A stretch of DNA of 64,000 bases from an uncultured virus (IMG/VR IMGVR_UViG_3300021599_002910) (IMGVR_UViG_3300021599_002910:62001-126000), one strand, 5' to 3'. Positions 18,985 to 54,685 are shown, counted from the first letter of the stretch. Numbers and translations are program-made. Notes: generated from the sequence alone by a model not told the origin.

Positions 18985-18989
18985 AAGTG

Positions 18990-19077
18990 CGGAAAGAGTA
19001 GGATTCGAACCCACGGAACAGTTCCCCGTTCTCCTGATTTCAAGTCAGGTGCAATCGACCAGCTCTGCCATCTTTCC
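18990..19077 (-). tRNA. tRNA-Ser(TGA)
   Basis: Cloverleaf; CCTGA-CT-TGA-AA-TCAGG; long variable arm; G73. Confidence 0.95.
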
Positions 19078-19170
19078 ATTTAATTTTTTTTACCCCTACG
19101 ATTTTTATATGTAGTAGTTAGGAAAACTAATACATTTTGTTATGTTCTACAAAGATATTATATTTGTTGT

Positions 19171-37612: not shown

Positions 37613-38101
37613 TTAATAAATGAATGATTTTTGGAAATCCTCCCAAACTTTGCTCACGGTTACATTCTCCCCCACTAATGTTGGGGCAAAAGGTTTATGT
37701 CTCATTGGCATTTTAGCCTCTTCTGGTGTTTTATTAGATTTCTTCAAGTTACATTTGAAACAAGATGTTACAAGATTCATCCAATCATTTTTACCTCCCC
37801 TAGATTTTGGAATTACGTGGTCCAAAGTTAAGTGCTTACTTGACCCACAATAAACACATTGATAGTTGTCTCTCTTATAGATTCTATTCCTATTTGCGCG
37901 AAGATTCCTTGTGAAATGTTTGATGTATTTCAGTAATCTAATAATCACAGGTCGGACATATGTTTTGAATCCAGCAGTAATAGGGGATTCATCAGACTTG
38001 ACAATTTCTGCCTTACCCTTATCCACTAAAACAAATCCTCGTCGAATAGTAGTTACATTCAACGGGGTGTAATCATAATTTAAAACCAATACACTTCCCA
38101 T
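37613..38101 (-). CDS. HNH endonuclease (McrA-like)
   Basis: VLVLN.DY.PL, RD...CVYCG, TLDHVIPKSRGG...W.NLVTSC..CN..K. Confidence 0.9.
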   Translation of the reverse strand: MGSVLVLNYDYTPLNVTTIRRGFVLVDKGKAEIVKSDESPITAGFKTYVRPVIIRLLKYIKHFTRNLRANRNRIYKRDNYQCVYCGSSKHLTLDHVIPKSRGGKNDWMNLVTSCFKCNLKKSNKTPEEAKMPMRHKPFAPTLVGENVTVSKVWEDFQKSFIY

Positions 38102-38186
38102 TTTGTAATTTTTTGCAATAATAGTTTATTTTCTAATAAAAAACAAAAGGGGTCCAAAAAATGAACCCCTTAGATATGTAACGTTT

Positions 38187-38294
38187 TTAGCAATAGTTTA
38201 TGGTTCGGGGTATCCTGCGTTCCATCACCCAAGGGTTCTCATATGAACTTGTAGTTCCCAAAAGACACGAAATGTTATTGTCTAAATCCATCAT
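38187..38294 (-). CDS. 35-aa small ORF followed by a terminator
   Basis: MMDLDNNISCLLGTTSSYENPWVMERRIPRTINYC*; TATTTAT upstream; AAGGGGTTC/GGACCCCTT hairpin at about 38146-38172. Confidence 0.35.
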   Translation of the reverse strand: MMDLDNNISCLLGTTSSYENPWVMERRIPRTINYC

Positions 38295-38330
38295 TTACAT
38301 AAATATTAAAAAAACGGTGTATTTATCAAT

Positions 38331-38999
38331 ATGAAATTTTTTCTTTTTTACGAAGACTTATTATCCGAAGCAAGATTGATGTCGGATGAAAAATTCGATT
38401 GGATTGTTAAGAACCTCGGAGAATGGTTATTCGAGGAATTATATTCGAAACCCCAGTTGATTAATTCCTTACCAAATATGGAGCAATTCAGAACATTCGT
38501 AAAATTTAAAACGACTGAAAAGGCAAATACAGATTCAGAGTTGGTCGGTGCATTGTATAGACTTGGCGATTTCTTGAATATGTTGAGTCCCAAAGAATCA
38601 CAAACTTTCATCAAATCAGTAAGCTCAACGTTTCCCAAAATTGCATCCAAGATATTAAGATATGGAAAACCTGAACCAACAGGAAAAAGAGGAAGACCCG
38701 CAGGTTCAAAAAATAAAGAAAAACAATTTGAACCCGAAATAAAAACTGACATTGCTTTTATTCCGAAAAAACAGGAAATACCTCAACCTTCAGAACCAAA
38801 GAAAAGAGGGCGAAAACCTCTCGAAAGTCCTTTAACATCTATGGAAAGATACCTATATAAAAAAGAGGGACCTGAAAAAATCCAAAGCCTCGAAATGAAA
38901 GTTAAAGAACTTGATTCAGAGATTGACCAAACTGTTCAGAGAATCAAGAAAATAATGCAAGACATAGAAAAAAGAAAAAACTTTTTTGGTATTCAATAA
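38331..38999 (+). CDS. protein with AT-hook-like motifs and C-terminal coiled coil
   Basis: GKRGRPAG and KKRGRKP. Confidence 0.65.
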   Translation: MKFFLFYEDLLSEARLMSDEKFDWIVKNLGEWLFEELYSKPQLINSLPNMEQFRTFVKFKTTEKANTDSELVGALYRLGDFLNMLSPKESQTFIKSVSSTFPKIASKILRYGKPEPTGKRGRPAGSKNKEKQFEPEIKTDIAFIPKKQEIPQPSEPKKRGRKPLESPLTSMERYLYKKEGPEKIQSLEMKVKELDSEIDQTVQRIKKIMQDIEKRKNFFGIQ

Positions 39000-39029
39000 T
39001 TTTTCATAACTTTGTGAAAATTATTAAAA

Positions 39030-39302
39030 ATGCCATACATAGATATTGATATCGAACCATACGAATTCGTTCGAGCTTGTAACAAAAGTGACATCAAAGA
39101 ATTGATTAAAGAACTTGTAGATGATGGTCATCTACCTCAGGCTCTCTATAATGAAAAAGGTGATGTTAAAAAGTCCATCAAACCTACAGGGTATGGTGAA
39201 AGGGAATTTGAGGAAAAACTCGATAAGTTAAAATCAAAATATTATTCGTTAACCAACGAAGAGGAAGAATATTTTGAAAAAGTCTTCAGTAGACTTTTAT
39301 AA
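39030..39302 (+). CDS. hypothetical protein
   Basis: 90-aa ORF; TAACTTTG upstream. Confidence 0.65.
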   Translation: MPYIDIDIEPYEFVRACNKSDIKELIKELVDDGHLPQALYNEKGDVKKSIKPTGYGEREFEEKLDKLKSKYYSLTNEEEEYFEKVFSRLL

Positions 39303-39324
39303 AATCCTTTGTATTTATTAGAAT

Positions 39325-39426
39325 ATGAAACAACTTTTTGTTAATACGAATTTAGTGTTCAGACCTACAACACCTAATGGTGATGGGGGTAATCTATGCT
39401 TAGATTCAGATACAGATGTAGGATAA
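39325..39426 (+). CDS. putative leader peptide of tRNA array 1 (33 aa)
   Basis: MKQLFVNTNLVFRPTTPNGDGGNLCLDSDTDVG*; TATTTAT at 39312-39318. Confidence 0.65.
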   Translation: MKQLFVNTNLVFRPTTPNGDGGNLCLDSDTDVG

Positions 39427-39447
39427 TAAAAAACAAAGCCAAACATT

Positions 39448-39481
39448 AAAACCCTGAATCTTGAAAGTTCGGGGTTTTTTT
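39448..39481 (+). terminator. intrinsic terminator / putative attenuator before tRNA array 1
   Basis: AAAACCCTGAA/TTCGGGGTTTT stem plus T-run. Its 5' arm CTGAATCT is complementary to AGATTCAG (39402-39409) in the leader. Confidence 0.75.
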
Positions 39482-39499
39482 ATTACCTTTGTTTAATAA

Positions 39500-39573
39500 T
39501 GGGAAGTGGCTCAGCCCGGTAGAGCACCTGGTTTGGGACCAGGGGGCCGCAGGTTCGAATCCTGTCTTCCCAA
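39500..39573 (+). tRNA. tRNA-Pro(TGG)
   Basis: Cloverleaf; CCTGG-TT-TGG-GA-CCAGG. Confidence 0.95.
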
Positions 39574-39579
39574 CAAAAC

Positions 39580-39651
39580 GTCTTCTTAGCTCAGCGGTAG
39601 AGCATCTCGCTGTTAACGAGAGGGTCCATGGTTCGAGCCCATGAGAGGACG
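39580..39651 (+). tRNA. tRNA-Asn(GTT)
   Basis: Cloverleaf; TCTCG-CT-GTT-AA-CGAGA. Confidence 0.93.
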
Positions 39652-39654
39652 CAA

Positions 39655-39841
39655 AACAGGTGAAGACTGTGGTGGAACCCCACGGTATATGAATCCCAAA
39701 GACGCCGTCTTGATTCGCGGTATCAGAGCGGTGAGGGTAGTGTTTACTATAAGTCAGGAGTAATTAACCAAAGACGAAAATGTAACCACCAATGTAGTAA
39801 TATGTTGGTCATGATGTGTAAAAGGACACAAAAAACCTGTT
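39655..39841 (+). ncRNA. unknown ~187-nt multi-hairpin RNA within tRNA array 1
   Basis: Closing stem AACAGGT/ACCTGTT with several internal hairpins; GC-richer than the genome; no long ORF. Confidence 0.6.
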
Positions 39842-39846
39842 CAAAT

Positions 39847-39920
39847 GGAGCGGTAGTTCAGTTGGCTAGAATGCTTGCCTGTCACGCAAGAGGTCGCGGG
39901 TTCGAGCCCCGTCCGTTCCG
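39847..39920 (+). tRNA. tRNA-Asp(GTC)
   Basis: Cloverleaf; CTTGC-CT-GTC-AC-GCAAG. Confidence 0.95.
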
Positions 39921-40039
39921 CTGGTAGAGTTTGTCCGTGGTAACGGTCTAATGGGAGAAATCCTTGCAGACTTCTCCATCCAAAATCCAATCATTGTTTC
40001 ACTGGTGATTGGGCTAAATGTGAAGGAAAAACGGAATAT

Positions 40040-40112
40040 GCGGGAGTAGCTCATTTGGTAGAGCGATAGCCTTCCAAGCTATAGGTGGCCAGTTCGAGCC
40101 TGGTCTCCCGCT
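40040..40112 (+). tRNA. tRNA-Gly(TCC)
   Basis: Cloverleaf; ATAGC-CT-TCC-AA-GCTAT. Confidence 0.95.
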
Positions 40113-40121
40113 CAGAAAATT

Positions 40122-40194
40122 GCGGAAGTAGCTCATTCGGTAGAGCACGACCTTGCCAAGGTCGGGGTGGCCAGTTCGAGCCTGGTCTTCCGCT
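40122..40194 (+). tRNA. tRNA-Gly(GCC)
   Basis: Cloverleaf; CGACC-TT-GCC-AA-GGTCG. Confidence 0.95.
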
Positions 40195-40200
40195 CACATC

Positions 40201-40273
40201 GCCTCCTTAGCTCAGCAGGTAGAGCAACTGATTTGTAATCAGTAGGTCGTTGGTTCGATTCCGACAGGAGGCT
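40201..40273 (+). tRNA. tRNA-Thr(TGT)
   Basis: Cloverleaf; ACTGA-TT-TGT-AA-TCAGT. Confidence 0.95.
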
Positions 40274-40279
40274 CAAATA

Positions 40280-40352
40280 GGGGAATTAGCTCAGTTGGTA
40301 GAGCACTTGATTTGCATTCAAGTTGTCGTGGGTTCGACTCCCTCATTCTCCA
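40280..40352 (+). tRNA. tRNA-Ala(TGC)
   Basis: Cloverleaf; CTTGA-TT-TGC-AT-TCAAG; G3:U70. Confidence 0.93.
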
Positions 40353-40368
40353 CTAAAATTTGAAAGTT

Positions 40369-40602
40369 ATGGAAATTTTTTGGTCTTATTATTTAATCTG
40401 TTTGGCTTATTGTCTTGTCATGTCAGTAAGAAAATGGAACAGAGATGTTATGGCAGGTGGTCTTGGTATCTCACCTGGATTAGATACTTTAGGTTTGATT
40501 ATCATGTGTTGGGTGTTAGCACCTGTTGATATTACTCTAACTTGGATACGTATCTATAAGGAAGCGGAAGAGGCAAGAAGAAACAACACAAAAATTTACT
40601 AA
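40369..40602 (+). CDS. small membrane protein
   Basis: Two hydrophobic helices; ATG at 40369. Confidence 0.6.
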   Translation: MEIFWSYYLICLAYCLVMSVRKWNRDVMAGGLGISPGLDTLGLIIMCWVLAPVDITLTWIRIYKEAEEARRNNTKIY

Positions 40603-41201
40603 TGCATATCTCAGAGAAACACAAAGTTTATTGGTTTACCCCACAAAGAACAGGAACACGTTCAACTAAAGAACTTCTTCGTGTTATGGGTTTTCAAACT
40701 TTTGACCATCATTTTACATTTGATTCCAACAAAAAAGACTATTTCTTCGTATCAAACGTTAGAAACCCTTACTCTAGACTAGTATCCCTGTTTTATTTGT
40801 ATTCACATCATTTGAATGATTTTCAAAAACATTTCAAAACTTGGGTTTTCGAATCCCTCGAAAACCCGAAAATAATTAATGATTATCAATTACAATATCA
40901 TAAAAATTATGAAATTTTGGGTAGACCATTTGATAAATTCATAAAACAGGAAAATTTGGAGAATGACCTCAAGTCTTTGAAATTTTTGGATTTGGAGAAT
41001 TCCGATATCAAGAAAACCTTTGATGAGTTCATAAGTAATAACAAATTCAAAACAGAATTTGAAGGACAAATGAATGAAAAAAGGAAACCATGGAAGGAAT
41101 TTTATGATGAAGAAGTATCCAACTACGTTTATAAAATTTTTGAGGAGCAATTTCATTTATTTGGTTATCGAAAAGAATCTTGGAGAAATGTCACACCCTA
41201 A
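40602..41201 (+). CDS. sulfotransferase family 2-like protein
   Basis: PQRTGTRS (5'-PSB-like loop); VRNPYSRLVS (3'-PB); FGY at the C-terminus. Confidence 0.75.
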   Translation: MHISEKHKVYWFTPQRTGTRSTKELLRVMGFQTFDHHFTFDSNKKDYFFVSNVRNPYSRLVSLFYLYSHHLNDFQKHFKTWVFESLENPKIINDYQLQYHKNYEILGRPFDKFIKQENLENDLKSLKFLDLENSDIKKTFDEFISNNKFKTEFEGQMNEKRKPWKEFYDEEVSNYVYKIFEEQFHLFGYRKESWRNVTP

Positions 41202-41541
41202 TTTACATGCAAAAAGTTCCGCTAAAAAGTTTGGTGGAAAACCTGAGGATTATATTCATTTACATGAGTGGATGGATGAGACCAAAGGTTGGTTCGGGGA
41301 TTCTTTACACAGAATGTTTAGACATCATTCGGAAGGGATTTTCGAAATGGAAAAGAGGTTTGGTCCTGAATTCAAAAACAGTGATGGTAAGACAGTCTAC
41401 ACCCGATATGTTGGTGAACAACACGTAAAGGAAGATTGTAATAATTATATCCCTTCCGCAAAAGAATGGATAAACAACATGGTATCGAACACAAGGCCAT
41501 CTTGGATGTTGAAAACAATAAAATTAGAGTTCGAAGATTGA
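41188..41541 (+). CDS. conserved phage protein (DUF6915-like)
   Basis: MSHP..HAKSS.KKFGG...DY...H.WMDE.K...HR..RHH.EGIF...EQHV.ED. Confidence 0.7.
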   Translation: MSHPNLHAKSSAKKFGGKPEDYIHLHEWMDETKGWFGDSLHRMFRHHSEGIFEMEKRFGPEFKNSDGKTVYTRYVGEQHVKEDCNNYIPSAKEWINNMVSNTRPSWMLKTIKLEFED

Positions 41542-41554
41542 TATTTATATTATC

Positions 41555-42259
41555 ATGAAAGATTTATTAACTAAAGACGAAAAAAAGTATTTAAATCGTA
41601 TCTGTCGTTATTTAGGTTCCATCGGAATGGAAGATGCATTTGTCGAATTCGAAATGAATACCTCTTATTTTGATTGTGACGATATCGATTGGAAAAATGT
41701 AACACATTTTTCAAATAATTACGTTGCGGAAATTCCTGAAGGATTAATTCCAATTTTTCAGAAAAGCATTTATTATGTTTGTGAAAATGAACTAATTAAA
41801 CAACCCGAATATGACGATATCAATTGGGGAAGAGTTATGATTGAGATTGATTGTAAAACTAGAGAAATTTCAATCTCCTATGACTATAGCTACTATGATG
41901 TTGGGAATACCGAATCTATTACTCATTCTTTGGAAGAAGACGACAATGAGGATTTAATGGAGCTTTTTGATACGTTAGAAAACGACGAGGAAATTAGTGA
42001 TAGAGTCCTTCAACTTGACTACAATGGAAGTGGTGACTCTGGTTACTTGGAAGACGATTTTACAAATGGTGATTCTGTTCCTGCGGTGGTTTCAGACTAC
42101 GCATACAGAATGCTTGAAAATAATTTTGGTGGATGGGAAATCAACGAAGGTTCTCAAGGTAATTTCGAAATTGATTTGGACCGTAAAGAGATAACCTTAA
42201 ATCACACAATGAATATTGAAGAAACAGAAAGAGATACTGTTTGGGAAGAAAAGTTCTAA
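41555..42259 (+). CDS. acidic protein with DUF6878-like C-terminal domain
   Basis: YNGSGDSG...GWEINEGSQG.F. Confidence 0.65.
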   Translation: MKDLLTKDEKKYLNRICRYLGSIGMEDAFVEFEMNTSYFDCDDIDWKNVTHFSNNYVAEIPEGLIPIFQKSIYYVCENELIKQPEYDDINWGRVMIEIDCKTREISISYDYSYYDVGNTESITHSLEEDDNEDLMELFDTLENDEEISDRVLQLDYNGSGDSGYLEDDFTNGDSVPAVVSDYAYRMLENNFGGWEINEGSQGNFEIDLDRKEITLNHTMNIEETERDTVWEEKF

Positions 42260-42301
42260 TTCATTTGTTTTTTCAATACTGATTCCTTACTTTTGTTTTA
42301 T

Positions 42302-42388
42302 ACCTTGGTGGCGAAATCGGTATACGCGCAAGACTTAAAATCTTGTGGACAGAAAATGTCCGTGTGGGTTCAAGTCCCACCTGAGGTA
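42302..42388 (+). tRNA. tRNA-Leu(TAA)
   Basis: Cloverleaf with long variable arm; CAAGA-CT-TAA-AA-TCTTG. Confidence 0.93.
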
Positions 42389-42504
42389 ATGAAATTGGAT
42401 TTGTTGTTGGGAGAGTTTATAATAGTATGACCCAAGAAGAAATAAATGATTTCATAAAAGGGTTTGAACACGGAGTTTCTCTAACAAACGGAACTCACTA
42501 AAAT

Positions 42505-42585
42505 ACCCCGATGGCGTAATGGTAGCCGCGTTGGTCTTAGGAACCAATGACTTCGGTCGTGAGAGTTCGAGTCTCTCTTGGGGTA
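42505..42585 (+). tRNA. tRNA-Leu(TAG)
   Basis: Cloverleaf with long variable arm; TTGGT-CT-TAG-GA-ACCAA. Confidence 0.93.
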
Positions 42586-42596
42586 CAGAAAAATAA

Positions 42597-42627
42597 TTTG
42601 ATTTTTAAAAGAGATTTACTATATTTG
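42597..42627 (+). promoter_or_regulatory. Bacteroidota-type promoter upstream of leader 2
   Basis: TTTG (42597-42600) and TATATTTG (42620-42627) match the -33/-7 consensus. Confidence 0.55.
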
Positions 42628-42644
42628 TAGTAATTATAATAATA

Positions 42645-42725
42645 ATGAGAACAATAGTGCGTAATAAAGTCTATAGTAAACAACAAGAGATTTGTTGGTT
42701 TAAGACACGCGCTGTAGTCTCATGA
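42645..42725 (+). CDS. putative leader peptide of tRNA array 2 (26 aa)
   Basis: MRTIVRNKVYSKQQEICWFKTRAVVS*. Confidence 0.65.
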   Translation: MRTIVRNKVYSKQQEICWFKTRAVVS

Positions 42726-42758
42726 GATAGCCTATAATTCCTGAAGAGTTATATATAC

Positions 42759-42800
42759 AAACCTCGGACTACAGAAATGAAGTTCGGGGTTTTTTTATTT
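42759..42800 (+). terminator. intrinsic terminator / putative attenuator before tRNA array 2
   Basis: AAACCTCGGACT/AGTTCGGGGTTT stem plus T-run. GACTACAG (42767-42774) is complementary to CTGTAGTC (42712-42719) in the leader. Confidence 0.75.
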
Positions 42801-42812
42801 AAGGAGTTTTTG

Positions 42813-42823
42813 GTTCTTTGAAA
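42813..42823 (+). promoter_or_regulatory. boxA-like antitermination element
   Basis: GTTCTTTGAAA; the same 11-mer lies just upstream of the tmRNA. Confidence 0.5.
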
Positions 42824-42848
42824 TAATGGTTGTAAGTTTGTAATTCTT

Positions 42849-42920
42849 GGCCCCGTCGTCTAAAGGTTAGGACGCCACCCTTTCACGGTGGAGATTTCGG
42901 TTCGAGTCCGTGCGGGGCTA
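42849..42920 (+). tRNA. tRNA-Glu(TTC)
   Basis: Cloverleaf; CCACC-CT-TTC-AC-GGTGG. Confidence 0.93.
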
Positions 42921-42927
42921 CAAATTC

Positions 42928-43000
42928 AGTCTCTTAGCTCAGTTGGAAGAGCACTTGCCTTACATGCAAGGTGTCGTAGGTTCGATTCCTACAGGGACTA
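42928..43000 (+). tRNA. tRNA-Val(TAC)
   Basis: Cloverleaf; CTTGC-CT-TAC-AT-GCAAG. Confidence 0.93.
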
Positions 43001-43005
43001 CAAAT

Positions 43006-43079
43006 GGTGACGTAGCTCAGTTGGGCTTAGGCGGAAGTCTGCAAAACTTTCTACGTAGGTTCGATTCCTATCCTGACCT
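43006..43079 (+). tRNA. tRNA-Cys(GCA), with two acceptor-stem mismatches
   Basis: GAAGT-CT-GCA-AA-ACTTT; U73; acceptor GGTGACG/CCTGACC has G:G and C:C mismatches. Confidence 0.75.
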
Positions 43080-43085
43080 CAATAA

Positions 43086-43159
43086 TGGAATGTAACTCAG
43101 TTGGTTAGAGTGCTAATCTGATACGTTAGATGTCGGCGGTTCGAATCCGCCCATTCCAA
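43086..43159 (+). tRNA. tRNA-Ile(GAT)
   Basis: Cloverleaf; CTAAT-CT-GAT-AC-GTTAG. Confidence 0.92.
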
Positions 43160-43173
43160 CAAATAAAATTGTT

Positions 43174-43698
43174 ATGAGACGTAAAATTATTTTTATTGAT
43201 GTAGATGGACCACTGGCATGGGGAACTTGGGGTGATGGGAGAGTTACGCTGAACGAACACAGTAAAACTTTTACAATCCCTTACCCATGGGTTGAAGATG
43301 ATTGTCAAGCACTTCAAAAAATTTGTGATGAAACAAACGCAAGTTTAGTTGTGAGTTCGGATTGGAGAAAACATTTCAGTTTTATACAATTAAAACGTAT
43401 TTTCCAATACTATGGTGTAACAGCTCCGATTGTAGATATCACAACCCATCAGGACCTTTGGAATAAACTTAGTAGACCTTCAATTGAGTGGGAAAGAGCA
43501 GCAGAAATCACAAAGTGGGTAAAAGATAATAAAATCTCAAATTGGATTTCAATCGACGACATGAAACTTGATGGTCAATATAAATGGATGAAACCAAGAG
43601 TTCCGATGTGGAGACACGTTCAGGTAGATGGTGACTTCGGGTATGGTGGTAGATTAAGAGATAAAATAGATGAATGTATAAAAAAACTTGAGAGATAA
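43174..43698 (+). CDS. HAD-superfamily phosphatase (Swiss-Army-knife RNA-repair-type HAD)
   Basis: IIFIDVDG.L, LVVSSDWR, R..EI..W, WISIDD. Confidence 0.8.
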   Translation: MRRKIIFIDVDGPLAWGTWGDGRVTLNEHSKTFTIPYPWVEDDCQALQKICDETNASLVVSSDWRKHFSFIQLKRIFQYYGVTAPIVDITTHQDLWNKLSRPSIEWERAAEITKWVKDNKISNWISIDDMKLDGQYKWMKPRVPMWRHVQVDGDFGYGGRLRDKIDECIKKLER

Positions 43699-43726
43699 TT
43701 CGTTATCTTTGTATAAATAAAAAATT

Positions 43727-44275
43727 ATGAAAATCAATAGAGCGGATTTGTTATGGTTCCTGAATAACATCCGAAGAAAACAAGAAGGAAAAGAACTAAG
43801 TGATGAGATGCTTGTTGACCACTTAGCGCATTACATGGAGGCAAATCCAAGATGTGTTGATATGTTAGGTGTAAGCACTCGTGGTAGATTCAGTTATTCA
43901 ACTGTGGGATATGGTGTATTTTCACTCATGGGTGAAAAATACAGAATGGGTAGAATCGAGGTTTTCGACAGTAAAAATGAAAGTGGATATCAGGTTCATG
44001 AAGGAATCTACACAATGCCTTATGAATCGGCAAGTCAATTCGAAGATTTTATCGAATCCTTGGAAACTGACTTACCAATAAACATAGAGATAGGTTCTCA
44101 CAACTGGTGTGAAGAGGAATGTGCGAAATCATTAGGTTTCAAAGATTCCGATGAAATGAGAGACCCCGATAAAGTGAAAGAATATACTCGGAAAAAAAAC
44201 GATGAGTATGCTCGTGAACAAGGATATGAAGATTGGGATGACTTACTCTCTAAAAGTAAATGGACGAAAAAATAA
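43727..44275 (+). CDS. hypothetical protein
   Basis: 182-aa ORF; TATCTTTG upstream. Confidence 0.7.
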   Translation: MKINRADLLWFLNNIRRKQEGKELSDEMLVDHLAHYMEANPRCVDMLGVSTRGRFSYSTVGYGVFSLMGEKYRMGRIEVFDSKNESGYQVHEGIYTMPYESASQFEDFIESLETDLPINIEIGSHNWCEEECAKSLGFKDSDEMRDPDKVKEYTRKKNDEYAREQGYEDWDDLLSKSKWTKK

Positions 44276-44280
44276 GTCAC

Positions 44281-44353
44281 GCGTGCGTAGCTCAATTGGT
44301 AGAGTACTAGTCTCCAAAACTAGGTGTTGTAGGTTCGAGTCCTACCGTGCGTG
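44281..44353 (+). tRNA. tRNA-Trp(CCA)
   Basis: Cloverleaf; CTAGT-CT-CCA-AA-ACTAG. Confidence 0.93.
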
Positions 44354-44358
44354 CAAAT

Positions 44359-44491
44359 AGGTTGATTGGGGAATGGTGATACTAATGACTCGAGAGTGTA
44401 TTTCGGTCTGTATCATCGGAGTTGGGAGAAATACACCTGAGTAATGCCAATCGTAAAAGGAGATGTCCACGCAACCATCTTCTCCTTTCCT
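44359..44491 (+). ncRNA. unknown ~133-nt structured RNA with a potential pseudoknot
   Basis: GATTGG/CCAATC, ACTC/GAGT, GTGTATTTC/GAAATACAC, AAAGGAGA/TCTCCTTT stems; crossing GGTGATAC/GTATCATC pairing. Confidence 0.6.
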
Positions 44492-44495
44492 TAAT

Positions 44496-44577
44496 GGGAG
44501 TATCGCCTAGTGGCAATGGCAGAAGACTGTAAATCTTCCCTCTTTCGAGTTCGTTGGTTCGAGTCCAGCTACTCCCA
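44496..44577 (+). tRNA. tRNA-Tyr(GTA)
   Basis: Cloverleaf with long variable arm; GAAGA-CT-GTA-AA-TCTTC. Confidence 0.93.
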
Positions 44578-44580
44578 CAA

Positions 44581-44642
44581 AAATGATTGAAGTCCTGAGT
44601 GGTGTCAGGAGGAAGTAACACAACCAAGTGTAACAATCATTT
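44581..44642 (+). ncRNA. unknown 62-nt three-way-junction RNA
   Basis: AAATGATTG/CAATCATTT closing stem; TCCTGA/TCAGGA and ACAC/GTGT hairpins. Confidence 0.55.
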
Positions 44643-44644
44643 AA

Positions 44645-44718
44645 GGACCCTTAGCTCAGTTGGTTAGAGCGGCTGACTCATAATCAGTAGGTCCACGGTT
44701 CAAGTCCGTGAGGGTCCA
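44645..44718 (+). tRNA. tRNA-CAT (probably Ile2; elongator Met not excluded)
   Basis: GCTGA-CT-CAT-AA-TCAGT; paired G1-C72, so not fMet; GGACCCT acceptor resembles Ile2. Confidence 0.85.
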
Positions 44719-44723
44719 CATTA

Positions 44724-44794
44724 TATCCTCTGGTGTAACGGTAACACAATTGGTTTTGGTCCAATTATTCAAGGTTCGAATCCTTGGGGGATAA
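44724..44794 (+). tRNA. tRNA-Gln(TTG)
   Basis: Cloverleaf; ATTGG-TT-TTG-GT-CCAAT; U1-A72. Confidence 0.92.
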
Positions 44795-44889
44795 CAAATT
44801 TTTATTATGAATAATATTTGTGGAATTCACGGAACACTTTTAGACAAAGACGGACTTTGTCCGAAATGTTTAGAAGAAAATAACAGATA

Positions 44890-44962
44890 GGTCTTATCGT
44901 ATAATGGATGAATACACTTCGCTACGGACGAAGAAATTTGGGTTCGAATCCTAGTAAGACCT
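44890..44962 (+). tRNA. tRNA-Arg(ACG)
   Basis: Cloverleaf; CTTCG-CT-ACG-GA-CGAAG. Confidence 0.92.
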
Positions 44963-44974
44963 CGTAAGTAATAT

Positions 44975-45048
44975 GGTGAACGTAGCTCAGTTGGAAGAGC
45001 ACTAGCTTGTGGCGCTAGTTGTCGTGGGTTCGAACCCCATCGTTCACA
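44975..45048 (+). tRNA. tRNA-His(GTG)
   Basis: CTAGC-TT-GTG-GC-GCTAG; G-1 present; discriminator reads A rather than C. Confidence 0.88.
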
Positions 45049-45052
45049 CAAA

Positions 45053-45137
45053 GGAGAGTTGCCTGAGTGGTTAAAGGAGCAGTTTGCTAAACTGTGGTCG
45101 AGCAATTGGCCTATTGGTTCGAATCCAATACTCTCCG
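45053..45137 (+). tRNA. tRNA-Ser(GCT)
   Basis: Cloverleaf with long variable arm; GCAGT-TT-GCT-AA-ACTGT. Confidence 0.93.
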
Positions 45138-45238
45138 CAAAAAAAAGTTTACACTGCTAATTGACGATTCTGAAAAACTTTTCTATATTTATAAACTCAA
45201 GACGTTATTAAAACATTAACAAAAAAAACAAAAAGAAA

Positions 45239-45409
45239 ATGAAAAAAATCCTTGCAATCTTGTCAATCGTAGCATTGGCATCATGTGGAAACGGAGCAAC
45301 ATCAAACGAAGTAAAAACCGATTCAACTGCTGTAGTAGCAGACTCAACATTGGTAGACTCTACAGTAGCTCCAGTTGTAGATTCTGTTAGAGCAGAAGAA
45401 GTAAAATAA
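45239..45409 (+). CDS. small lipoprotein (56 aa, not in ORF track)
   Basis: MKKILAILSIVALASC lipobox followed by DST/DSV repeats; TATTTAT upstream; terminator downstream. Confidence 0.8.
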   Translation: MKKILAILSIVALASCGNGATSNEVKTDSTAVVADSTLVDSTVAPVVDSVRAEEVK

Positions 45410-45432
45410 TATATTCTTCTACAACGAACTAA

Positions 45433-45463
45433 TAAAAAACCCCTCATTTGAGGGGGTTTTTTT
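45433..45463. terminator. bidirectional intrinsic terminator
   Basis: AAAAAACCCCTCA-TT-TGAGGGGTTTTTTT between convergent genes. Confidence 0.8.
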
Positions 45464-46757
45464 ATAATAGTCCTTTTATTCTTTTTATATTTTCTTGTAA
45501 TTTACCTTCGTTTTGTTGTTTTTTCTTATTGAAAACTTTTTTGAAGGCGTTTGCAATCCATGGGTCGACATCTCTTTTTGAGTCCCAATCTTTCCACTTT
45601 TTTGTTTTGAGTTCACCTGTGTCCTTGTCGTATACATTTCCAAAAATCTTTTTTGGTAATAAAATCAAACCAGCAAGTGCAGGGTCCGAATATTGTCTAT
45701 TACTACCTTTTATATATACTTTCTTATTAGGCTCTTTCTCTTTTTGTTTATCAACAAAAGAATCAAATTTTTGCGGGTCTATATTTTTTCTATTATATGA
45801 TTTGTCGAGAAACAACACCTCAGCATTGTCCTTACTATCCATAGTTCCAATATCTTGACCTTGAGAAACAGGGTCACCATTATTTACTTTCTTGGTTGTC
45901 ATTCCACAATACTGTAAAAAAAACTGAGGTTGTGTTGATGACTCAATTGTCACCTCATTTTTACATCCTTGAACAAATCTTTTGTTGTTTACTACACCAT
46001 CTATCGGACTTTTCACTCTTGGATTACTCGAACCAGGAATTACAATAGTTCCCATATTACTTTGGATGTTTTTTCCGAAACCTTCTTTAAGATTAAAAAC
46101 CTTACTACCAATGTCTTTAGCGACTAAGTAAAGTAATGGGTTTTGTTCTTCCGCACTTTTGGATTTTGATTTTGTTCCACCTATATTGATTTTTTCACCA
46201 TAGGCACCTGCCTTGGTTGTGTCTGAAGTTCCATCTTCAGTTGAATCGTCTGAACTTGGTTGGTAGTTGGGGTCTACAGAAGACGGTGAACCAGTTGTAT
46301 TTGAAACGTGAACGTGATTATCGTGGCCTGCAAAACCGAAGGTCAAAACAGCTTTAGGATGTGATGAACCCTCAGCATTCTTATTGTAACCCATACTTAG
46401 AAGAGCATTTACAAACTTGTCAACAACGTCTCTATTTTTTGGACTTACAACTTTTCCTCCTATATAGTCAATGTCTACGGCATTTTGAGACCAGTGTCTA
46501 CTTACATTACCACTTTTTGCATATTTGCCGTGGTCAGTCTTTGCGAAATCAATCGTGATGTCCAAACCTGTCATTTGAGATGCTTTTTGTAAGTCGTCCA
46601 ATAAAGCTTTATTTATCTCATCTTGTCTAGTTCTTTTAGCAAATTTCAAATTTGGATATAAAGACTCATCAGGTTTTATATAGACCTCAGAGACCATATC
46701 CTTATTCTTATCAAATTGATTATAAAGTTTTTGTATGTTAGTTAGTATGTTCGACAT
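45462..46757 (-). CDS. putative peptidoglycan hydrolase: M15-like peptidase plus degenerate M23-like domain
   Basis: SRH...AVDI...H.NHVHV; VKSPIDGVV...V..GD.VSQGQ.IG lacking the M23 His ligands. Confidence 0.6.
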   Translation of the reverse strand: MSNILTNIQKLYNQFDKNKDMVSEVYIKPDESLYPNLKFAKRTRQDEINKALLDDLQKASQMTGLDITIDFAKTDHGKYAKSGNVSRHWSQNAVDIDYIGGKVVSPKNRDVVDKFVNALLSMGYNKNAEGSSHPKAVLTFGFAGHDNHVHVSNTTGSPSSVDPNYQPSSDDSTEDGTSDTTKAGAYGEKINIGGTKSKSKSAEEQNPLLYLVAKDIGSKVFNLKEGFGKNIQSNMGTIVIPGSSNPRVKSPIDGVVNNKRFVQGCKNEVTIESSTQPQFFLQYCGMTTKKVNNGDPVSQGQDIGTMDSKDNAEVLFLDKSYNRKNIDPQKFDSFVDKQKEKEPNKKVYIKGSNRQYSDPALAGLILLPKKIFGNVYDKDTGELKTKKWKDWDSKRDVDPWIANAFKKVFNKKKQQNEGKLQENIKRIKGLL

Positions 46758-54283: not shown

Positions 54284-54292
54284 AATCTGCTG

Positions 54293-54685
54293 TGGAGAAG
54301 ACGGGAGTCGAACCCGTGTCTTGTTCGCGACAACTATAAGTGACTACACGTTTATTACAACATTGTTTCTCAATGTTCCGAAATATTAGGTTTGATATAT
54401 GTGAGAAACCCACCTACAAACAACTTGGTCTCAGAATTATTTTAAACGAGCTCTGACCTGTGACCCGTATATTGGACTTCTGTTCCTAGGTTAATGTCCT
54501 AACCGACCCGAGTGTCGTGACTTAAATTAAGCAACAACAGTAGCTTCTTCAGCGATTAAACCGATAGCAGCCATCTTAGCAAAAGTATTGCCATTTGTTT
54601 TTTCAAATCAGTTGATAAAGGAGTTAACTCAGCTCCTACGTGCCACCTATAACTACACACGCCAATCAATTGCCATGACTTCCCC
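54293..54685 (-). ncRNA. ssrA: tmRNA
   Basis: 5' GGGGAAG pairs with 3' CTTCTCC (G3:U70); T-arm GGGTTCGACTCCC; tag ORF at 54592-54527 reads GNTFAKMAAIGLIAEEATVVA*. Confidence 0.92.

Follow-up and report, generated by a model that had tools for sequence, protein, structure and literature searches.

Leader 1, a short open reading frame (ORF) that stands in front of seven tRNA genes in an uncultured phage, is probably the sensor ORF of a ribosome-mediated transcription attenuator that gates this tRNA sub-cluster. Judged by its conservation among relatives, the cis-regulatory unit at leader 1 is real. We computed its anatomy, its conservation, the selection on its sensor codons, its link to tRNA-Pro, the match of its paralogues to their tRNAs, and a folding behavior that depends on the position of the ribosome. 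The core of the preliminary description was that leader codons report on the downstream tRNAs and that a terminator competes with an alternative pairing. This reading is supported by the conserved ORF, the terminator, the alternative pairing, the presence of tRNA-Pro as the next gene in every case, and two matched paralogous leaders.

The phage and its tRNA region

The window, i.e., the whole stretch of 64,000 nucleotides that was analysed, comprises bases 62001-126000 of a 137,034-base phage genome with 34% G+C, which carries 21 tRNA genes and one tmRNA gene. Its proteins, which include a Nol-like carbamoyltransferase common to cyanophages and HNH endonucleases, point to a phage. Near-identical DNA is found in 18 of the 24 public runs listed (at 0.90 or more of the sampled words), and the run labels are mostly lake or freshwater, with nine labeled fungus metagenome. 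Among cultured phages, a DNA search with leader 1 gave no match, and a search with the tRNA region matched only tRNA genes of unrelated phages.

Leader 1 comprises 33 codons and a stop codon at 39325-39426 of the window, as the preliminary description had claimed, and lies on the plus strand, as do the features around it. Gene calls confirmed the proposed order of the tRNAs that follow it (Pro, Asn, Asp, Gly, Gly, Thr). The sub-cluster extends over 39500-40353 and contains, in order, Pro(tgg), Asn(gtt), Asp(gtc), Gly(tcc), Gly(gcc), Thr(tgt), and Ala(tgc). Directly upstream of leader 1 is a co-oriented ORF of 90 aa (39030-39302), for which we found relatives and no Pfam or PHROG match. One relative (L011) possesses leader 1 without the 90-aa gene upstream, so this gene is not an obligatory part of the unit and the leader belongs to the tRNA cluster.

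Two tRNA spacers of the sub-cluster have neither an ORF nor an Rfam match: Asn-Asp (39653-39846, 194 bases) and Asp-Gly (39922-40039, 118 bases). RNA-library contigs cover 39656-39841 in the Asn-Asp spacer with summed depths of 42-112, and in relatives L004 and L006 this spacer holds an ORF with an HNH-like C-terminus. Amid the tRNA genes, 43174-43698 encodes a 174-aa protein with a match to Pfam PF18143 (E 9e-20), the HAD domain found in "Swiss Army Knife" RNA repair proteins, and may link the tRNA region to the repair of damaged RNA or to attacks of the host on tRNA. Between tRNA-Gln and tRNA-Arg is an ORF of 27 codons, four of them for Cys and one for His (44807-44890); it ends at the exact start of tRNA-Arg and has no terminator behind it. 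The tmRNA gene (54292-54685, minus strand) has a predicted tag of eight residues, which is unusually short. A lone tRNA-Ser(tga) (18989-19160, minus strand) is preceded, at a distance of about 70 bases, by a promoter-like box and by neither a leader ORF nor a terminator, so not all tRNAs of this phage would be gated.

Conservation of leader 1 in related phages

The relatives, all from uncultured phages, were gathered by searches with partly different requirements, which started from the neighbor protein, a terminator pattern, or an ORF pattern. The upstream 90-aa protein led to six loci. The terminator sequence, searched with two free bases, recovered the whole unit in 13 of 13 matches, and a degenerate pattern of seven block codons recovered the unit in 23 of 28 matches, the other five being unrelated genes. 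A looser gapped pattern matched at least 118 stretches of metagenomes, with 15 real units among the matches listed; in bacterial and archaeal species genomes, none of the matches listed (at least 120 stretches) passed the leader filter. Exact duplicates and a 5′-truncated copy (L059) were removed, which left an aligned set of 29 distinct leaders.

The ORF is open in all 29 leaders and has 30-34 codons, and the combination of ORF, terminator, and tRNA-Pro(tgg) as the next gene is found in every one of them. Where enough flank is available, tRNA-Pro is followed by Asn, Asp, Gly, and Thr tRNAs, apart from some losses. Codons 14-23 (39364-39393), which we refer to as the sensor block, encode only Pro, Thr, Asn, Gly, and Asp, as had been noticed. 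Homologues without such a block had been named as evidence against the proposal; instead, the block and its core Pro-Thr-Thr-Pro-Asn-Gly-Asp are kept in 28 of the 29 relatives, with a variant in L015.

Across all 29 leaders, pN/pS is 0.62 for the whole ORF, 0.69 for the N-terminus, 0.21 for the nine-codon block, and 0.82 for the tail. Within class 2 (12 closely related sequences), it is 0.06 for N-terminus and block together and 1.26 for the tail, and the first two thirds of the ORF show 199 synonymous versus 40 non-synonymous pairwise differences. By these ratios, the sensor codons are under purifying selection, whereas the tail is not. Despite its free peptide sequence, the tail keeps its length and the position of its stop codon, and the Ser codon within region 2, a tail segment complementary to the terminator, is identical in 29 of 29. 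The contrast in pN/pS and the invariant Ser codon together indicate that selection acts on the amino acids specified by the first two thirds and, in the last third, on the RNA. A sensor ORF fused to an RNA switch would predict this pattern, and a functional micro-protein would predict it less well.

The absence of a Shine-Dalgarno sequence and the very short 5′ leader would fit an untranslated structured RNA, either a small RNA or an element for processing or stability of the tRNA precursor, in which the ORF is accidental; several conserved helices with covariation (see below) would fit it as well. We consider such an RNA very improbable, given the open frame of conserved length in all relatives, the predominance of synonymous differences in class 2, and a Leu position that the relatives spell from two different codon families. 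Nor does Rfam contain a family that matches 39300-39500 at E up to 1. The leader 1 peptide belongs to no Pfam or PHROG family. Short RNA-library contigs of relatives (X19, X20, X21) lie on 39360-39438, which is part of the ORF, and on 39467-39575; such contigs give neither ends nor strand, and DNA may have been present.

Leader codons and downstream tRNA genes

In the window alone, the run of ten block residues is not beyond chance and proves little: the six-frame translation of the genome (274,064 residues) contains four runs of at least ten residues drawn from the five amino acids; the iid chance of such a run in one 33-residue peptide is 7e-5. Counted over the whole leader with strict wobble, 16 of 32 codons are cognate to the seven tRNAs of the sub-cluster, versus a background of 0.265 (p 4e-3), and only 4 and 7 of 32 are cognate to the other two tRNA sets (see below). 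Strict wobble also yields a point against the attenuator model, as the Pro codon CCT is not read by the anticodon UGG.

The match does not extend to single genes. Ala had been described as the one tRNA of the cluster without a codon in the leader, which is true of the window copy and is a misfit to codon matching because the tRNA-Ala gene is present; in 18 of the 29 relatives, however, the ninth block position is an Ala codon. In the 17 of 29 copies with at least 1,500 bases of flank, the Ala codon does not predict the presence of a tRNA-Ala gene (counts 6, 5, 1, and 5; Fisher p 0.16). The suggested link of the Leu codons CTA and TTA to the downstream tRNA-Leu genes was not upheld, as their positions are variable and hold Leu in 11 and 13 of 29 leaders. 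L013/L031 retains an Asp codon in the absence of a tRNA-Asp gene, as L004 does with Gly codons and the tRNA-Gly gene. Judged from gene content, fine matching of leader codons to downstream tRNA genes fails.

Predicted competing RNA helices

An intrinsic terminator is predicted at 39448-39481 (12-bp stem 39448-39459/39467-39478, 7-base loop, T tract) and is conserved, with 99.7% of cells paired across the 29 sequences. Its 5′ arm overlaps region 3 (39454-39461), the predicted 3′ arm of an antiterminator; the predicted 5′ arm, region 2 (39402-39409), is located inside codons 26-29 of the ORF. Both arms are proposed from complementarity, nascent folding, and the relatives. The preliminary description had listed two alternative pairings, and both complementarities are present in the sequence. 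Only the one between regions 2 and 3 is kept, as its 6-bp core is paired in 29 of 29 leaders. The sixth core pair is G-C in 24 and A-U in five leaders and is never mispaired; this compensatory change may represent a single evolutionary event. Pairs 7 and 8 on the outer side are at chance level (15 of 28 cells paired over 14 haplotypes; permutation 3473/10000). The full 8-bp helix is the best duplex between the leader and the terminator 5′ arm and is equalled in 244 of 2,000 dinucleotide shuffles, and in the window alone the pairing is not beyond chance.

The other pairing (39364-39369 with 39417-39422) is not conserved and was rejected: 70.1% of its cells are paired versus 69.8% in shuffles, and 279 of 500 shuffles reach 70.1%. 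In the full-length minimum-energy fold, region 1 (39348-39358) pairs with 39396-39407, which makes a possible protector helix. It is weak in the relatives, with z below -2 in five of 29, where the row of the window itself is anchored on an upstream look-alike of region 2. A further predicted hairpin (39415-39447) spans the stop codon and is nested in the antiterminator; by eye, it recurs in the relatives with shifted registers and compensating changes.

RNAalifold on the relatives recovered the terminator along with a hairpin in the sensor block (39363-39390). One pair of this hairpin covaries at two synonymous third positions (AU in 16, UG in 10, UA in three, unpaired in none). The hairpin matters for the reading of the block, because the order of the seven core residues, and not just their composition, is near-invariant (at least 26 of 29 at each position), which exceeds what counting codons would need. 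Such an order would be expected if the same RNA switch were thrown by a ribosome that its nascent peptide arrests, perhaps with a small-molecule or factor cue, and tRNA scarcity were not the signal. The fixed order can also result from the conserved core hairpin, which covaries at synonymous sites, the block has no consecutive prolines, and leaders 2 and 3 (see below) are unrelated peptides that again match their own tRNAs. We therefore regard arrest by the peptide as quite unlikely and read the block as a set of codons that would be sensed through their tRNAs.

Folding with the ribosome in place

Formation of the terminator had been proposed to depend on the position of the ribosome. We folded 39318-39481 at equilibrium with a 27-base ribosome mask at each codon and found that the terminator forms at all positions (P 0.87-0.96) and the antiterminator at about 0, an outcome that had been named beforehand as refuting the proposal. 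The full-length fold has -36.3 kcal/mol with the terminator and -30.8 kcal/mol with the pairing of regions 2 and 3 enforced, a difference of 5.5 kcal/mol. Because the terminator forms at equilibrium regardless of the ribosome, the attenuator model needs kinetic control. The choice in attenuation precedes synthesis of the terminator 3′ arm, and we therefore used folding of the nascent transcript.

In nascent RNA that ends at 39467, the proposed dependence is recovered, and the antiterminator forms only with the ribosome upstream of the tail codons. The probability of the pairing between regions 2 and 3 is 0.57-1.00 with P-site codons 1-22, drops to 0.26 at codon 23, and stays at 0.00-0.03 over codons 24-33, including the wait at the stop codon. 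The modeled antiterminator is formed with the ribosome at codons 5-22 only, and the end of the conserved block coincides with the point where stalling ceases to be permissive. Seven further leaders showed the same trend with more noise. In the Leu/Arg leader, sequestration of the terminator 5′ arm is 0.71-0.87 while the ribosome occupies the last Leu/Arg codons and 0.37-0.39 when it has reached the stop codon. Untranslated nascent RNA forms the antiterminator too (0.96), which, together with the weak protector helix, counts against the attenuator model.

From these results we infer a mechanism that includes translation of the ORF, stalling on it, and a terminator that functions in the host, as well as the direction and size of the effect. 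Transcripts from an upstream start would carry the 33-codon ORF. A ribosome in its last third or at its stop codon would cover region 2 and leave region 3 free, so that the terminator would form and RNA polymerase would halt 19 bases before tRNA-Pro. A ribosome held in the first two thirds would leave region 2 free; a shortage of the cognate charged tRNAs would cause this hold-up, above all at the Asn and Thr codons and within the Pro-Thr-Thr-Pro-Asn-Gly-Asp block. Region 2 would then pair with region 3 once the latter is made, assisted by the nested stop-codon hairpin, and the antiterminator would block the terminator and allow read-through into all seven tRNA genes of the sub-cluster. As the tRNA products would relieve the stall, the circuit would amount to negative feedback on decoding capacity.

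Paralogous leaders before other tRNA groups

Two further leaders of the same build precede other tRNA groups. Leader 2 is a 22-codon ORF before tRNA-Leu(taa), Arg(tct), and Leu(tag) (L022:8920-9052), which is also found in L020, L023, L033, L040, and L047. It encodes nine Leu (six of them TTA) and four Arg (all AGA) and possesses the upstream box and the terminator of leader 1, with a region 2 copy located three bases past the stop codon. In L022, 10 of its 21 codons are cognate to Leu(taa), Arg(tct), and Leu(tag), versus a background of 0.089 (p 4e-6). Phages of the window type, reached via an upstream 234-aa ORF, have no leader 2 in six of six loci, where the tRNA follows within about 60 bases and nothing but a promoter-like box precedes the first tRNA of the group. 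The window lacks leader 2 as well, with just 41 bases (42260-42300), which contain a promoter-like box, between the upstream ORF and tRNA-Leu.

Leader 3 is located before a Glu-Val-Phe-Lys-Cys... tRNA group in eight loci, including the window. There, the unit (42620-42848) comprises a promoter-like box found by motif scan (42620-42627), an ORF of 26 codons (42645-42725), a region 2 (42712-42719) that is complementary to 42767-42774 and beyond, a terminator (stem 42762-42769/42782-42789, T tract to 42796), and a second box (42833-42840) before tRNA-Glu, Val, Cys, and Ile. The alternative pairing of this copy is equalled in 10 of 2,000 shuffles. Inspection by eye indicated that leader-3 copies keep the pairing of regions 2 and 3 of the leader-1 type with a further change of A-U to G-C or G-U, and that region 2 has the matching change or a G-U where the terminator arm is one base off that of leader 1.

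Leader 3 of L022 has 22 of 32 codons cognate to its own set, versus a background of 0.452 (p 6e-3). By eye, all 13 amino acids of its tRNA set are present, including Cys, Trp, His, and Met, for which we estimated by hand from genome frequencies a probability of roughly 0.004 in a random 32-residue peptide. Spelling follows the tRNA as well: Arg is AGA in leader 2, which precedes tRNA-Arg(tct), and CGT or CGC in leader 3, which precedes tRNA-Arg(acg). With strict wobble, each of the three leaders is depleted in codons of the other two tRNA sets. The last eight residues of leader 1 in L033 and L047 are identical to those of leader 3 in L022, which suggests that tail and switch module have been exchanged between paralogous leaders.

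We lean, by a narrow measure, toward a broader reading in which these units form a modular family of "checklist" leaders. Each tRNA sub-cluster would be gated by its own ORF that polls exactly its tRNAs, and the tRNA supply of the phage would be switched on only when the decoding capacity of the host fails, for example, through cleavage of host tRNAs by defence nucleases or through host shut-off.

Promoter-like boxes and routes into tRNA-Pro

A motif scan with TAnnTTTG, the promoter consensus of the Bacteroidota -7 type, identified a promoter-like box at 39007-39014, upstream of the 90-aa ORF; L004 has the same box before the homologous ORF. There is no terminator between this box and leader 1, so it can also feed leader 1. 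A conserved AT-rich box with TTTG just before it (39306-39318) was seen by eye in all upstream stretches that we inspected. It lies six bases from the start codon (6-14 in the relatives) and is a possible promoter or initiation region of the leader itself. Across the genome, the Bacteroidota-type box stands upstream of 12 of 168 ORFs versus 8.4 expected, which is not a convincing enrichment and leaves a Bacteroidota host as a hint only. A scan for sigma-70-type promoters was uninformative (22 sites versus 25.7 expected).

A second promoter-like box (39484-39491) is located between the terminator and tRNA-Pro in 11 of the 29 copies, including that of the window, and is a possible attenuator-independent promoter. 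It opens an alternative in which the terminator simply closes an ordinary operon made of the 90-aa ORF and a conserved micro-protein gene, this box drives the tRNAs, and the match of the peptide to the tRNAs is coincidence or shared compositional bias. The similar boxes directly before tRNA-Leu (42288) and tRNA-Glu (42833), the stability of the terminator at equilibrium, and the chance level of both run and pairing in the window alone would all agree with an operon end. In 15 of the 29 copies, however, the mature tRNA starts 0-9 bases after the T tract, which leaves no room for a promoter, so in half of the family tRNA-Pro would be transcribed only through the terminator. An operon end would also not account for an ORF that stays with the tRNA cluster where the upstream gene is missing (L011), for three paralogous leaders that each fit their own tRNA set and are poor in codons of the other sets, or for an ORF tail that is unconserved as a peptide yet complementary to the terminator. 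We consider the operon end unlikely and retain the attenuator as our reading. Given the box at 39484-39491, the tRNAs of the window need not depend on read-through; the box probably adds basal expression outside the control of the attenuator, which may in this phage only modulate an otherwise basal expression.

Comparison with known attenuators

The closest parallels are the multivalent attenuators of enterobacteria, in which the thr leader is rich in Thr and Ile codons and the ilv leaders in Ile, Val, and Leu codons. In them, a short translated ORF rich in several regulatory codons is followed by a mutually exclusive antiterminator and terminator, and a stalled ribosome favors read-through, which is the arrangement proposed for leader 1. 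Leader 1 has no sequence or Rfam similarity to them and, in the proposed model, polls five to six amino acids at once. It also differs in being phage-borne and in having paralogous copies, one per tRNA sub-cluster. The thr and ilv leaders control biosynthetic enzymes, whereas leader 1 precedes tRNA genes, so its output would act on the sensed quantity itself. The attenuator of pheST, the phenylalanyl-tRNA synthetase operon, has a Phe-rich leader and is similar in that leader-peptide attenuation controls a component of the decoding machinery and not amino-acid synthesis; it serves one protein enzyme and one amino acid, whereas leader 1 would serve tRNAs and many amino acids.

T-box riboswitches choose between terminator and antiterminator and report on the state of specific tRNAs, as leader 1 would. 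They bind uncharged tRNA directly and do not need translation, whereas the reader of leader 1 is, in the proposed model, the translating ribosome. An Rfam scan at E up to 1 found no T-box in 38000-46000, and the Trp, His, Leu, Thr, and Phe leader models gave no match at 39300-39500 at the same limit. Four leader models (Phe, His, Leu, Trp) score below threshold at 45344-45493, with 23.7-31.4 bits against gathering scores of 41-55; these matches are probably look-alikes of the bidirectional terminator at about 45440-45456 that follows the last tRNA.

To our knowledge, the described families of leader-peptide attenuators all control genes for amino-acid biosynthesis or aminoacyl-tRNA synthetases. 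The genes after leader 1 are seven tRNA genes and belong to neither group, and tRNA genes as the target are what is new relative to these attenuators. Full-text literature searches, which largely did not cover subscription journals, found no description of leader-peptide attenuation of tRNA genes. If our reading is true, leader 1 would be the first case of leader-peptide attenuation that controls tRNA genes and would form a direct feedback loop on tRNA abundance, extending a textbook mechanism to a new class of targets.

The regulation of phage-carried tRNA genes is, as far as we know, largely unknown, and these genes are usually treated as constitutive codon-usage patches. Since each leader would spell out the tRNAs that are limiting, the question of which host tRNAs limit during infection would become testable. 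The elements would then be natural multi-codon sensors of translation speed, with a possible use as reporters. For the phage itself, the reading, if true, means that it senses the speed of decoding and adjusts its tRNA supply by feedback.
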